Shown: positions 3,348-58,827 of the stretch, one piece after another | How the letters are laid out: every line of letters starts with the position of its first letter | How positions within the stretch are numbered: the stretch's first letter is position 1 | NCBI GenBank assembly: GCA_964016885.1 | Contig: OZ024740.1 | Location: 260,462,001 to 260,526,000 of the forward strand | Direction of reading: 5' to 3' | Source: Eledone cirrhosa | Lineage: Eukaryota | DNA length: 64,000 nucleotides | The notes under the pieces: generated by a model | What the model was told of the DNA's origin: nothing | Seen by the model: the letters and a program-made list of their open reading frames with translations, nothing else | Database searches by the model: none | Made by a program: the position numbers and the translations under genes

Positions 3348-3487
3348 GAAAAGTGTAATTTTCTACACAAAACGAAGGTTATAGAGAAAATTGAGGTTGG
3401 TAATGGCACATGGAATATATAAGAGACAGAATACTTTTTTGTGAAAAAACATAATTTTATAAGGTAAGGAAATAATAAAGGGTATAA

Positions 3488-3535
3488 AAAATGACCGGTT
3501 TCGATGGGTCTGCAAAAGCCATCTTTTCAAATGTT
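3488..3535 (-). ncRNA. Hammerhead-like ribozyme, U3-A8 core variant (left arm)
   Basis: Reverse complement reads TTGAAAA-GATGG..CCATC-GAA-ACCGGT-C: 5-bp stem II, palindromic stem III, GUC triplet. Confidence 0.65.
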
Positions 3536-4649
3536 GATTAATATTAAGAAAAGTTAATAATACGAAGAGTTAAAATTTGAGACTTGAAAATTCAAGTATA
3601 AAATTCATTGTGGGATTTCATAGCAGTTTTCATCTAGGTAGCAACAACAGGTTGACTGCTGTGTCCCTTTCTGGTAGTGAATGAGAAGTTATTTGGGGTG
3701 TGGGTTATTTTATAAAGGTCAGATTTAGCAATCACCAACTGGCCATCTGCTGGTCAGTGAGGGGGTGGAAGCAATATACATACACATATCTTCCTGTGAT
3801 GGGTAGGAGAGTGGAGCGTGATAGAAAGGGATTTAGTGCACTTACACCTATATATACACACATACCTTCATCCACACATACATACATATACATATACATA
3901 TATATATATATATACATATATACACACATACATACACACACACATACATATACATACACACATACACACACCCACATATATACACATACACACACACACA
4001 CACACATATATATATATATATATATATATATATATATATATATACACACACACATATATATACATACACATACATCCAGATACACACATACATACACACA
4101 CACACACATATATATATATACACACACATATATATATATATATATATATATATATACACACACACACCCCCCACACATACATACACACACACACACATAT
4201 ATATATATACATACACACATACAAACATACACACACATATATATACACACATACACATACACACACATATATATACACACACACACACATATACACATAC
4301 ATACACCCACACACAGAGAAATGGCCTTCAAATATATATATATATATATACATACAGACACATATATTTTTTCCATAATATAAGAAGTTGGGGCAGTGAA
4401 ATTAAAATACAAGTCATTCTGATCACATTGAGTTCTTCATGTAGATTGGGCCCCGCAACCGACAGTGGTGAATTCTGTGTGCGCATATATATATAGATAT
4501 ATGTGTGTGCACGTGCAGGGTTTAACATGGATGTGTTGGTCACACAAAGGCATGGTCTGTCAATGAATAAACCTGATTCTACAGAATTGGTCTCTGGTCT
4601 TTAATAGTAGTGATTCCGTGCGTATGTGTGTTTATATTTTATGACAATT

Positions 4650-6914
4650 CTATTGGGGTGATAACCCGTTTAGTTTTGGTTTAAATTTGTTAAGGAATAG
4701 ATTTTCTTTGTTTATTCTTTGTTGTTGTGTGAACGAATCTGAGCACTTGTAGAAGGGGAAGATTTTAAAGTTGGGTAGTGTCATTCCTGCGCAGTTCGCA
4801 ATATGGCTGCTCAAGGGCATTTTTCTTGTGTTAGCGTCCCGGATTTGTTGGCGGTGGATGGTCATTCTTTTGCGTAATGAGGTGCCCGTCTGTCCTATGT
4901 AGTTGTGTTTGCACCCACCGCAAGTTATTGCGTAAATCAAGTTCTCCGAGTTGCAGGTGAAATTGTTTTTTACTGTAAATGTTTGGCCATCTTTGAATGT
5001 AAATGTTTGTCCTTCAGTGAGTTAGAGGCACGTTCCACAGTTTGTTCTACCACATTTGGTAACTGTAGGGTTGAGGATTGGTTTGGGTATATTTGGTCCA
5101 GTGAGAATGCGTTTAAGTGATTTGGGTTGTCTTTTACTTTTAAGGATCTTGTGTGTTTCAAGAATAGACTTCATTTTTACATCTTTAAGTAGGATGGGGA
5201 GGTTTTTGTGTAGGTGATCAAACATTTCGGTATTTCTGGGGTTGAAAGTGGATACATATGGCAGGGTGTTGAGTGTGGTTTTCTGTTTTGGATTGTTAAG
5301 TTGATGGGGATTTAGGTGTTTTGCCCTGTCTATTCCATTGTTGATTATTTCAAGTGGAAAGGCTCTTAAGATAAGGGTGTCTTTTAGTTCCTTTAGTCTT
5401 TGCTCCCGTTTAGGTGGATCTGATACTATGGTACATATACGTTTGGCCAAATTGTAAGGAATGTTAAGTTTTGTATGTTTTGGGTGACTTGATGTGAAAA
5501 AGAGGTATTGCTTGGAATCTGTGGGTTTATAGAATATATCTGTATCTAATTTCCCGTCTATTACAGAGATGAGAATATCCAAGAAGGCTAATTCCTTAGG
5601 ATTGGATTCCATTGTGAATTGTATGTTATTATCTATGTTGTTTATCATGTTTTTAAACGTAGTAAGTGAGTTCAATTCTTCTTGCCATAGGATAAAGCAG
5701 TCGTCTAGATATCTTTTCCAATTGGCTTTGAGGTGTGTGTGGAAAGAGTCTCCAAATAAGAGAAGGGACTGACTGTATATTTGTTGTTCATGGAATCCCA
5801 TGACTAGGTTGGCATATGTGGGTGCTACTTTCGTGCCCATTGCCGTACCTGATACTTGTCTGTATGTTGAACCATTGAATGTGAAGTAGTTATTTTGTAG
5901 GATAAAGCGGAGTCCGTCAGTGATAAAATCTGTGTTGATGCGTGTCGGTATTTCTGATGGGTGTGTGTTAAGCCAATATTGGACTGCTGTTATTCCATAG
6001 TTGTGAGGTATGTTTGTGTAGAGGTTTATTACGTCAAAGGAGACAAGAATTGTATTTGCACTTACTGTTTTAGGGAGGTGTTTCAGCATGTTAAGGTCAT
6101 CTCGTATGTAGCTCTGTATATGTTGTAGAAAGGGTTTCAGTAGGATGTCCAGAAAGTTGCTAAGTCTGTGGGTTTCACATGTAGGGCCTGCTATAATTGG
6201 CCTGAGTTTTAGGTCTTCTGGTGGTGTTAGTTCAATGTAATTGTTGGTTGAGGTGTCACATGCATCGTTTATGGGTTTACATTTGTGAAGTTTCGGTAAG
6301 CCGTAAAAAGAGCTTGTATTGCATTTGAAGTGGCTTATATAGTTAAACTCTTTTGTGGTTAAGCTGTTGCGGTATTTATTCAGTAAGGTAGAAAGGTTCC
6401 CCATTGTTTTGGTGTGTTTGTAGTTTTCTGTTTTTTCATAGTATGTGTTGTTTTCTAAAATGTTAAGTGCGAGGGTCCTATAGTAGTCCGTATTCATAAT
6501 GACAACAGTACTGCCTTTATCGGCTTCTTTGATAGTTATCTCAGGGTTGTTTCTAAGTGTGAATAATTCTTCCCATTCGTGTGTAGATAGGTTTGATTTC
6601 GTGTGTTTATTTGTAATTTTTTCATAGGGAAAGTTGGTGATGTGTTCGCAGTACGTGTCCAGTGCTTTATTTCTTCCCTTTTGTGGGCAGAAATTGCTTT
6701 TATTTCTAACCAGTGATTCGTCTTCAGTGTTGGTGTCGTTGTGGAAGAATTCCGTTAGTCGCAGCTTTCGGCAGTATTCCATGATGTCATCCTTCATTTC
6801 GGGGAAGTTTGGTTTACGTGGTGTAGGTGTAAATTTCAGGCCCTTACTTAAAATGTTGATTTGTGTGTTGGTTAGAGGTGTCTTTGAGAGGTTGATTATT
6901 TTTGGTTTCTCCTG
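4650..6914 (-). pseudogene. PLE polyprotein (RT + Cys knuckle + GIY-YIG) interrupted by a single in-frame TAA at 5022-5024
   Basis: Motifs IINLSK..LSKGLKFTPTP, ADKG, YGLPKLHK, RPIIAG, SFDVINLYTNIP, GTAMGT, RYLDD, CGRTNCGTC, then LIYAITC..YIGQT. ORFs 5022-6797 and 4650-4940 are in the same frame. Confidence 0.9.
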
Positions 6915-57205: not shown

Positions 57206-57747
57206 CTATTCTCAGCTAAGTTTCCAGGCAATACGTGGACACAGGGAACTTATACAAAAATAATTCAGTGGATGGAAAAAGCAAAGCGAGGACTAATTCC
57301 AAGCCATTGATAAAATCACTGCCTACTGCATCGGTGGCAAATTCAAAAGAATCAATCACGTGACATCGAGGTCAATCAGTGGATAGTGGTTTGTTAGTAA
57401 GACAGCAGCCGTACTGTTACTATAGCACCAGTTTTGGCCATTTTTGCTCGACAAATAATTTTGGAGATAATTATAAAGAATTAGTATATCTAGTAACATA
57501 TATATACACAGATGCATACTTATGTTAGCAAATATATAGGTTTTGTCTTAGTAACTATGTGGTTCAATGCATGGGGTAGCAGAACAATAATATGAGAGAC
57601 GTAAAATAAGAAAATATATATATATATATAACGGCGATGAATTAGTTTTGCGGTGTTTTTGATATGAAATCGTGTGACGAAACAAATATTGTTATACTTG
57701 AAAAGATGGCGTAGGCCTACAATACATCAGGAGGAAACATAATAGTA

Positions 57748-57787
57748 CCAGTGACGATGTTGCAGATGTGCAACGAAAGAACTTTGT
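57748..57787 (+). ncRNA. Degenerate hammerhead-like motif
   Basis: GTGACGA-t GTTGCA gatg TGCAAC-GAAAGAACTT. Confidence 0.45.
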
Positions 57788-58671
57788 TAGACTATATATA
57801 TGTGTTTGTGTCTATATTATATCTGTATTTTTGACCGTTGGTCAGTCAATGGTAACATTGAGGACCGAATAAATTAAATTAACCGATATAAAAGACACAG
57901 AAGCGAAAACCAACCAAACAGCGAGTGTGTTCTGTTATTAATTCTGGCAATATTATTACACAAATATGACCCTCCCCAAGTATAACAATATATATATATT
58001 TATATATATATAGATATATATAGCTATGTGTGATTACACACTTTACAAATTATCCCCTGTGATTGTTTCATGTGTTTATTTCAAATATATATATATGTCA
58101 ATCAATTTCTAGTTGATATATATATATATATATATATATATATTACATCGCGGGAAATAGTCTGTATCATTTGTCTATTATTACTTCATAAATACATTTT
58201 AAACTTATAGCCTCGTTTAAATGATTTTTTATGTGGTTGATTTATACTGATTAGGAGAGGAAATACTGTATATATTTTAACTAATGGTTCTTTGGACTTA
58301 CATTTCGACGACTATTTCGAAACGGCTTGAGCTCTGCCGTCGGAATTAAAAATGTTCATATTACCCACTCTACTACCCTAAGTATGAAGTACTCTGGTGC
58401 GTTATGGTCCACCTGGCTCCTTACCACACCTCCTTAGTTATATATATATATATATATATATATATATATATAACAATATATATATATATATATATATATA
58501 TATATATATATATATATATATATATATATATATATATATATATATATATATATGCATGTATGTGTGTGTGTAGCAATAACCGTGGGTGGAGAAAAGTAAA
58601 AAGTAAAACAGCTTAATCGGGGAGAGAGCAGAAATATATTGTTTATTAATAATACAGAGAACAAAAGAGCG

Positions 58672-58827
58672 ACCTAAGGTTTCAAGGCCCAGTATTGACC
58701 ATATCTACAGAAATGTAAGAGCGATCGAAATTGTGACCTATCTTCATATAGGTGCCTGAAGATCACCATTTTGATTCCTCTTACATTTCTGCAGATATGG
58801 TCAATATTGGGACTTGAAACCTTAGGT
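58672..58827. repeat. 156-bp imperfect palindrome with degenerate outward-facing HHR-like motifs
   Basis: Outer 50-bp arms are nearly perfect; each reads CTG(T/C)AGA..GAA-ACC tta GGT(C). Confidence 0.8.

Follow-up and report, generated by a model that had tools for sequence, protein, structure and literature searches.

Fold-back Penelope-like elements in Eledone cirrhosa nearly always have one tailed and one tail-less end, consistent with twin priming at two fixed start sites

Fold-back Penelope-like elements (PLEs) in the genome of Eledone cirrhosa nearly always carry a tail at one end and lack it at the other, and comparison of their arms suggests that these are probably two cDNAs of one sense RNA, twin-primed at two fixed start sites. 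Within the 64,000 nucleotides of DNA that were analyzed (the window), self-BLAST recovered all five fold-backs that an earlier note on this DNA had described (E1 to E5). The elements and their parts are listed here with the predicted hammerhead motifs.

3348..8404, minus strand: E1, young Neptune-like PLE fold-back; arms 3383-4581 and 7206-8404, head-to-head junction 7206
3348..3382, minus strand: E1 tail, 35 bp, left end only, adjoining (TA)n
3493..3530, minus strand: E1 left hammerhead core, U3-A8 variant, palindromic helix III
4653..6950, minus strand: E1 ORF, 5'-truncated, with RT (Pfam RVT_1), CX4CxxC linker, one stop and C-terminal GIY-YIG
8257..8294, plus strand: E1 right hammerhead core, U3-A8 variant
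8400..8453, plus strand: (TC)27 run at the E1 end that lacks a tail
10031..11398, plus strand: E2-family copy absent from the earlier note; inverted arm 10031-10268 head-to-head with RT, 3' part lost
25146..27192, no strand assigned: E2, non-coding fold-back built from two 3'UTR copies that belong to a second Neptune-like family, with the tail at 25146-25180 and arms at 25181-26111 and 26318-27192
25311..25341, minus strand: E2 left hammerhead-like core (U3-A8, GCAA; non-canonical)
27035..27065, plus strand: E2 right hammerhead-like core (U3-A8, GCAA)
46903..49583, plus strand: E3, fold-back with Hydra-clade motifs; arms 46903-47211 and 49184-49494, EN remnant 47380-47997, tail 49495-49583
46948..47013, minus strand: E3 left minimal type I hammerhead, canonical core
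49384..49449, plus strand: E3 right hammerhead, GAAA mutated to GGAA
51109..56792, plus strand: E4, fold-back with Hydra-clade motifs; RT-EN remnant 52130-54162, junction 52129/52130, tail 56699-56792
51157..51222, minus strand: E4 left hammerhead, canonical core
54890..55985, minus strand: second inverted duplication within E4, covering the junction and the start of RT
56585..56650, plus strand: E4 right hammerhead, canonical core
58572..58826, no strand assigned: E5, old fold-back of pLTRs only, from a fifth family, with long-stem-II hammerheads; tail at left, about 58572-58640, right end interrupted by a SINE-like repeat

The substitution divergence between the arms is 0.6% in E1, 1.4% in E2, 2.9% in E3, 2.2% in E4 and 12.8% in E5. 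Four of the eight coding PLE remnants in the window lack an inverted arm. The two termini of each element had been taken as equivalent 3'-like ends, which they are not: every element has a one-sided tail, and the coordinates first given for E2, E3, E4 and E5 omitted it (the E1 tail was included, at the left only). The proposed location at or near TA tracts holds for 7 of the 10 ends, which lie at most 2 bp from a (TA) tract of at least four units once the tails are added; the other three are the E1 right end, parted from TA by a run of about 27 (TC) units, the E5 left end (about 20 bp off, tail included) and the interrupted E5 right end. By comparison, positions no more than 20 bp from such a tract make up just 11.4% of the window. 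Among the best 40 matches per query, 96 of 97 E1-family outer ends adjoin TA.

RT and a GIY-YIG endonuclease (EN) are found in one unit, as in EN+ PLEs; E1 matches Pfam RVT_1 and GIY-YIG, and for E3 and E4, which have no Pfam match, the translations supplied the RT and EN motifs. The pLTRs consist of 3'-end copies arranged in tandem or inverted, with a tail on one side, and inverted-plus-direct copies occur elsewhere in the genome (loci L114, L213, L214, L241 and L230+L231). E1 and E2 are assigned as Neptune-like by motifs: they combine a C-terminal EN, a CX2-5CxxC linker and CCHH. With the Neptune-type PLEs described in PMC8557442 they have in common RT followed by EN, GxKF, a CX4CxxC linker, a CCHH-type EN, a pLTR hammerhead, microsatellite targeting, inverted and tandem pLTRs and a 35-bp tail, and E1 also the DKG motif; they differ in a family-wide U3-A8 hammerhead core, with GCAA in addition in E2. 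Judged by the same kind of evidence, E3 and E4 belong to the Hydra clade and not to Naiad, with a C-terminal EN, a CxCX5C linker and no CCHH, canonical hammerheads and (TA)n insertion. DKT is present in the long copies of the E4 family (E3 is truncated), and the RWK position of long copies reads RWR in three and GWC in one. The account of the Hydra clade in PMC8557442 (section 11) matches in C-terminal EN, CxCX5C, DKT, CxxC and CxH near the EN end, canonical hammerheads and (TA)n insertion; the Eledone elements differ in reading mostly RWR instead of RWK, in a tail of about 90-95 bp compared with 30-40, and in units of ~3.8 kb with a long 3'UTR where that source gives generally <3 kb. Of the earlier description of the coding copies as Neptune-like and Naiad-like, the first half thus applies to E1 and E2 and the second is contradicted by the C-terminal EN, CxCX5C linker and DKT. 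A (TA)n preference, inverted copies and a tail are shared with Naiad, whose EN is N-terminal; RT precedes EN in all coding copies here, which rules Naiad out, and in place of the Naiad traits (no canonical hammerhead; DKA) canonical hammerheads and DKT or DKG are present. Non-LTR retrozymes consist of head-to-tail tandem non-coding hammerhead units and were rejected for E2 and E5, which are inverted pairs with varied junctions.

All five elements have the left hammerhead on the minus strand and the right one on the plus strand, as had been reported, with motifs of varying quality. A hammerhead in the pLTR is predicted by sequence motif (the E2 core being non-canonical), and a strict CUGANGA/GAAA descriptor matches 3 of the 10 motifs (E3 left, E4 left and E4 right). 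The E1 core UUGAAAA (U3-A8) is present in 100/100 E1-family motifs, the E2 core has UUGAAAA plus GCAA replacing GAAA (GCAA in 54/54 E2-family motifs) and the E5 hammerhead is decayed, its left core reading AUGAAGA. The U3-A8 variant has been described before (PMC4209133). An Rfam scan of the window gave 134 matches, mostly to miRNAs and driven by microsatellites, and none of them to a hammerhead family. Minimum free energy folding of the ten motifs as monomers gave none better than shuffles (z -1.55 to +0.65), which is expected of minimal dimer-type hammerheads and was counted as evidence neither way.

Genome copies of the five families were sampled as the best 40 matches per query, which is not a random sample (E2-family copies were gathered with an internal E2 query). 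In these samples the inverted form, earlier held to be the norm, predominates in the Neptune-like families (41/57 and 21/32 loci) and not in the Hydra families (20/57 and 9/24). One tailed and one tail-less end were found in 41/41 resolved E1-family fold-backs among the best 40 matches per query (one-sided P = 4.5e-13 against a 50% ceiling), and on the same sampling in 21/21 of E2, 11/11 of E3, 19/20 of E4 and, for E5, 12 of the 14 copies with both ends read. Four exceptions were noted: L183 has two tail-less ends with both arms stopping at one point, in L110 an E1-family arm and the E2-family arm joined to it are both tailed, no tail is seen in L288, and the end pattern of L279 is ambiguous. 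Where the arms are unequal, the shorter one bears the tail in 18/40 E1 and 6/20 E2 fold-backs (24/60 Neptune-like), and therefore neither arm can have copied the other there. Both arms end within 60 nt of the same point in only 1/41 E1 fold-backs. Microhomology of at least 2 nt was present at 5/19 resolved junctions, not clearly above the 15% expected; 11 junctions had extra or unmatched bases, and 11/30 could not be anchored. Variable (CT)1-45 runs are confined to the tail-less end of copies and look like slippage during initiation, and the (TC)27 run of E1 is likely to be RT slippage of this kind. AU-rich bases lie directly 3' of both start sites, which are internal in tandem donors because the tail continues into the 5' region of the ORF.

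The arms of one insertion also share variants. Within the E1 family they differ at 0.26% of sites compared with 0.53% between insertions (0/10,000 permutations), and E2, E3 and E4 show the same trend (43, 2 and 0 of 10,000 permutations). Minor alleles of the E1 family are concordant between arms in 52 cases and discordant in 3, and of the locus-private variants 12 are common to both arms and 49 are on one arm only. A single copy, L268, carries 37 A-to-G changes (RNA strand) common to both arms, limited to two segments able to pair as a hairpin, with the outer tail unedited. Apart from the L268 locus itself, none of the best 40 of 362 candidates has the edited form. A depletion of 5' G, as expected of ADAR, reaches only a suggestive level (P = 0.067). 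L268 looks as if one ADAR-edited sense RNA had been copied twice, and the proposal of the earlier note that fold-backs yield long dsRNA gains support from these ADAR-type clusters in one genomic copy. An already-edited donor absent from this assembly could also account for L268, and the variants shared by arms are compatible, too, with a pair of RNAs from the same donor or with gene conversion at a later time.

The notion that the element might be strand-symmetric is not borne out, nor is movement by way of the antisense strand, as the template of L268 is a sense RNA and E4, the sole candidate for an antisense copy, fits DNA duplication better. The 1.75-kb arm previously ascribed to E4 comprises a 1.02-kb terminal arm and 0.72 kb of ORF sequence that is duplicated. 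Both E4 arms contain the 52129/52130 junction, with no further copy among the best 40 of 412 candidates, and an excess of A-to-G changes was looked for in E4 and none was found. The duplicated segment resembles the left arm close to the junction and the right arm distally, a mosaic of variants (with only about four informative sites) that fits local DNA duplication better than an antisense second-generation origin, which was rejected. The secondary inverted duplication thus probably arose at the DNA level. As a weak side observation, one RAD joint, seen in two other samples and at one start position only, is compatible with a short E4-family fold-back.

In twin priming of L1, a single RNA serves both target 3' ends as template, and joining of the two cDNAs results in an inversion; the second primer anneals far upstream, inverting without duplication. 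The PLE start sites here differ in being fixed and close, and therefore the 3' end is duplicated. The GIY-YIG domain would cut both strands of the self-complementary (TA)n, one DNA 3' end priming at the inner site, which gives the tail-less end, and its partner at the outer site, which gives the tailed one. The first cDNA would then be pushed off the surviving RNA by the trailing RT; PLE RT is not known to have RNase H. Each cDNA would stop independently, and repair would join the cDNA 3' ends head-to-head. Failure of one side would leave a solo copy, a tandem RNA would give the classic inverted-plus-direct pLTR, and priming near the RNA 5' end would give tiny pLTR palindromes such as E5. Hammerheads would face outward because each arm is a 3'-end copy, and they are probably unneeded for insertion. 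The two head-to-head cDNAs in (TA)n that the earlier note envisaged are thus retained, and its common RNA 3' end as the start is replaced by two fixed sites 35-95 nt apart. For the Poseidon PLE PAc in vitro, PMC11167929 describes cutting and extension of both strands of an AT-rich target, two internal RT start sites bounding the tail, a dimer model and no requirement for hammerhead cleavage. Its start sites have no homology to the target, whereas the Eledone sites precede AU-rich bases able to pair with (TA)n. In the available parts of that paper the two start sites are not linked to the two arms of an inverted insertion; no difference in start site was seen between the strands there, which offers no basis for the one-and-one rule.

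An unlikely alternative is twin priming on two RNAs of one donor in a dimeric RNP, with one RT subunit per start site and the RNAs possibly paired via the palindromic hammerhead helix III. It accounts for the one-tail rule, the tail on either arm and the haplotype concordance, minimal hammerheads with a palindromic helix III are described as dimerising (PMC4209133), and L110 unites arms from two families. However, 37 identical A-to-G edits in two molecules are unexpected unless the donor DNA carried them, and several E1 haplotypes are equally young, yet the arms are concordant at 52/55 informative sites. Self-priming, in which the second arm is made by the first cDNA, or by an antisense RNA in the proposal of PMC3846280, turning back to serve as its own template, is improbable. 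Arm identity, the mirror junctions in L183 and L092, a small hairpin at the 5' end of L144 and the palindromic junctions published for rotifer PLEs would follow from it, but it demands a tail on the longer arm and the shorter arm has it in 24/60, near-coincident arm ends occur only once in 41 E1 fold-backs, and the edit polarity of L268 marks a sense template. Self-priming is thus contradicted as a general route and may apply to a minority of copies. About as improbable is a tail left by staggered endonuclease resolution of a double-stranded intermediate (PMC8557442), with arms of separate origin later homogenised by gene conversion. Such a cut naturally yields one tailed end, inverted repeats can convert and E4 has a DNA-level rearrangement between its arms; against this, the tail has been mapped to two RT start sites (PMC11167929), the (CT)1-45 runs at the tail-less end only resemble initiation slippage, and 49 one-arm variants compared with 12 shared ones indicate that conversion was not wholesale. 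An assembly fold-back artefact is barely credible, since the arms differ by 0.6-12.8% following family age, the ends are asymmetric, more than 100 loci have their own junctions and the same structure is published in other animals, while the failure of any public read or contig in two read sets to bridge the E4 junctions (short contigs, possibly from other individuals) is uninformative.

The twin-priming reading of one RNA at two sites builds on features of PLEs that are already published: the inverted arm, the one-sided tail, the (TA)n target and opposite-strand hammerheads (PMC8557442, PMC3846280, PMC4209133). The typical Penelope structure (PMC3846280, PMC8557442 Fig. 2) likewise has an inverted 5'-truncated copy head-to-head at the 5' end and a tail at one end, and the hammerhead arrangement is like that of the opposite-strand min-HHR pairs of Schistosoma (PMC4209133). 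PMC3846280 and PMC8557442 treat the tail as optional or often one-sided and the inversion as antisense self-priming or EN resolution; as far as their available text goes, these two papers and PMC4209133 contain no strict one-and-one rule, no placement of the tail on either arm and no evidence of a shared template. Titles and abstract openings, among which subscription papers, older PLE reviews included, are thinly covered, yielded neither an earlier twin-priming model for PLEs nor a precedent for edited retrotransposed copies.

Overall, the balance tips slightly towards PLEs inserting by obligate two-site twin priming, in which a dimeric RT copies one RNA twice at the two sides of a cut in (TA)n, with read-through fold-back dsRNA being ADAR-edited and rewritten into the genome. 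PMC8557442 (section 15) counts the formation of tandem and inverted PLE ends among the unresolved points, and the twin-priming reading, if true, answers the open question of how PLEs move: one step would explain why pLTRs are inverted and the tail is one-sided, and how pLTR-only palindromes and slippage microsatellites arise, in the Neptune-like and Hydra clades alike. The genomic rule argues against the published antisense self-priming model as a general route, and predicts that the in vitro PLE system will yield products with a tail at one end and none at the other, the tail being on either arm, and with the same template for both arms. Thousands of such insertions also seed (TA)n tracts with inverted repeats able to yield edited dsRNA.

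Self-BLAST of the window identified inverted arm pairs at 5/5 places, the Penelope-like elements (PLEs) E1 (3348-8404), E2 (25146-27192), E3 (46903-49583), E4 (51109-56792) and E5 (58572-58826), with arm substitution divergences of 0.6%, 1.4%, 2.9%, 2.2% and 12.8%, respectively. Both arms are 3'-end copies of the element, and a hammerhead-like motif therefore lies on the minus strand at the left and on the plus strand at the right; the five fold-backs (two inverted arms joined head-to-head) of an earlier note were thus borne out by self-BLAST and motif orientation. A strict hammerhead descriptor matched 3 of the 10 motifs. 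The E1 core UUGAAAA, a U3-A8 covariant reported in PMC4209133, was present in 100/100 E1-family motifs. The hammerhead-like core of E2 combines U3-A8 with GCAA (54/54 E2-family motifs), the right hammerhead of E3 has GGAA, and those of E5 are decayed with a long stem II. The proposal that both termini are 3' ends near TA holds for the location, as 7 of 10 ends lie within 2 bp of (TA)n with n of at least 4 when tails are counted (11.4% of window positions lie within 20 bp of such tracts), but the ends are not equivalent: each fold-back carries a tail (an extra stretch past the arm end) on one side, mostly outside the coordinates first assigned. E1 and E2 have a tail of 35 bp, the tails of E3 and E4 are longer, at about 90-95 bp, and that of E5 lies at the left end. 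At the right end of E1 a (TC) run comes first, and the right end of E5 is interrupted by a SINE-like repeat.

E1 encodes RT followed by GIY-YIG with a CX4CxxC linker and is therefore Neptune-like. E2 is made of two copies of the 3'UTR from another Neptune-like family, of which locus L247 holds a complete unit. The Naiad-like label of the earlier note does not hold: in E3 and E4 the EN is C-terminal and comes with a CxCX5C linker, long copies of their families have DKT, and by these motifs both match the Hydra clade, for which PMC8557442 gives canonical hammerheads and (TA)n targets; at the RWK position of that clade, three long copies have RWR and one has GWC. Five full-length E1-family units (L114, L213, L216, L241 and L230+L231) have an identical 777-aa longest open frame (5/5), separate from an upstream N-terminal frame, a split that is possibly an intron or programmed break.

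The other features of the window are as follows.

1382-3192, 20576-21370, 27635-29127: PLE remnants without inverted arms
35780-38170: solo Hydra-like copy (no second arm), TA at both ends, hammerhead at 38054-38119 (+)
38226-38283 (-), 49972-50055 (-): hammerhead motifs of other families, outside E1-E5
22584-23541 (185-bp arms), 32893-33020 (perfect 128-bp palindrome), 34166-34503 (old 340-bp palindrome): inverted repeats adjoining TA tracts
16424-16727, 30686-30876, 42355-42756, 44261-44450, 52938-53119, 56841-57026, 58826-59147: SINE-like repeat of very high copy number, inserted once within the E4 ORF and once so as to cut E5
39642-41683 (+): transposase-like remnant with DUF4371, presumably hAT-like
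60000-63358 (-): LINE with RVT_1 and zf-RVT domains

Each family query of the 3.0 Gb assembly returned roughly 900-2,400 first-look candidates, and copies were taken from the top-40 lists. In this sample, where selection by terminus is biased toward fold-backs, 41/57 E1-family loci were fold-backs (five of the 41 also with a direct pLTR, or 3'-end copy), 15 solo and one direct-only; an ORF-sampled subset gave 29/37. The E2 family had 21/32 fold-backs (31 fetched of 39 other listed loci), the E3 family 9/24 index loci plus two neighbouring insertions, and the 57 E4-family loci comprised 20 resolved fold-backs, five unresolved, one direct and 31 solo or partial. Inversion as the norm, claimed for all, therefore stands for the Neptune-like and not for the Hydra families; within the window, 4/8 coding PLE remnants lack an inverted arm. 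Palindromes of 230-250 bp consisting only of hammerhead pLTRs (58572-58826 and L279-L298; 906 first-look candidates) have varied junctions near the 5' side of the hammerhead and may mark priming close to the RNA 5' end.

Among resolved fold-backs from the top-40 copies, exactly one of the two outer ends bore a tail in 41/41 (E1), 21/21 (E2), 11/11 (E3) and 19/20 (E4), and in 12 of the 14 E5-family copies (20 fetched) for which both ends could be read, where independent choice of ends predicts at most 50%. L183 is tail-less at both ends, its arms stopping at the same point; of the two E5-family exceptions, L288 shows no tail and L279 is unclear, and L110, which joins tailed arms of two families, lies outside the counts. 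L183 (1616-9589) is an almost whole-element palindrome with arms of about 3.2 kb and a 16-nt templated insert at its centre; L110 (2680-3160) joins an E1-family cDNA head-to-head to an E2-family pLTR arm via an 11-nt shared word. Among the top-40 copies of the E1 family, 22 had the tail on their longer arm and 18 on their shorter arm; for E2 the counts were 14 and 6, and each family had one equal-armed copy. In natural tandem copies the tail extends into the ORF's 5' region. There, AU-rich bases follow each of the two tail end points, and these might base-pair with a (TA)n primer. TA adjoins 96/97 E1-family outer ends; the tail-less ones bear 1-45 CT units, as might be expected if initiation involved slippage. 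At 8400-8453 and at E1/E3-family ends, element ends are separated from (TA)n by variable runs of (CT)n, (CA)n and (GT)n, which suggests that new microsatellites may arise by RT slippage.

E1-family arms differ at 57/21,699 sites (0.26%) within an insertion versus 0.53% between insertions (0/10,000 permutations). Both arms share 12 locus-private variants, 49 are on a single arm, and minor alleles agree across arms in 52 cases and disagree in three; the E2, E3 and E4 families follow the same trend. One of about 170 loci examined, the E2-family L268 (433-6470 of G000:C3:257296620-257306619), has arms that duplicate a read-through stretch of element 3' end, TA tract, inverted arm and sense pLTR. 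A hairpin can form between the first two of these segments. Of the 62 variants that they carry, read on the sense RNA strand, 48 are A-to-G changes, and the arms have 37 of these in common where they overlap; there is almost no editing in the final pLTR or the outer tail. Among the best 40 of 362 candidates, the edited sequence matched its own two arms only (100% and 97%; next 86%). The simplest reading is a single, apparently ADAR-edited sense RNA, copied twice and written back into the genome; an edited donor outside the assembly or gene conversion is possible.

Twin priming at two start sites of one RNA is the most likely origin of the fold-backs, and a probable one. The endonuclease would cut (TA)n on both strands, the target 3' ends on either side would prime at the inner (tail-less) and outer (tailed) sites of the same RNA, and the two cDNAs would each stop independently before head-to-head joining. 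The exceptions L183, L288, L279 and L110 count against this reading, as does junction microhomology, not clearly enriched in 19 resolved junctions (5/19). Two RNAs from one donor as templates of the two arms are unlikely. Self-priming of the second arm is improbable: where the tail is on the shorter arm, the longer lacks the tail and the shorter the inner sequence, so neither copies the other, although rare mirror copies may be its products. Staggered resolution plus conversion is given an equally small chance, and an artefact is highly implausible.

Junction 52129/52130 of E4 is found again in its right arm, a pattern that copying of antisense RNA from an earlier fold-back could produce. No donor carrying it was found among the best 40 of 412 candidates, and no editing was found. 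Close to the junction, the duplicated segment has one private variant in common with the left arm; distally, it has three variants in common with the right-hand copy. A local template-switch duplication would fit these few informative sites better. The strand-symmetric retroelement of the earlier note is therefore possible in principle but unsupported, E4 being the only candidate for it.

The fold-back form is not new, since it is described in four papers: an inverted 5'-truncated copy at the PLE 5' end, an often one-sided tail, microsatellite bias and a mechanism named as unresolved (PMC8557442); a typical Penelope structure modelled by self-priming on an antisense template (PMC3846280); hammerhead pairs on opposite strands 100-700 bp apart (PMC4209133); and a PLE protein that in vitro cuts and extends both strands, with two internal start sites bounding the tail and ribozyme cleavage not required (PMC11167929). 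E1-E5 add new members to PLE clades already described, and their architecture is known as well. Neither the strict end rule nor the same-template evidence was found in the literature searched, which covered these four papers, bioRxiv 10.64898/2026.07.22.740005 and, for other work, titles and abstract openings (older subscription reviews lay outside the search), and it is this one-tail rule, together with the same-template evidence, that gives the analysis of E1-E5 its worth.
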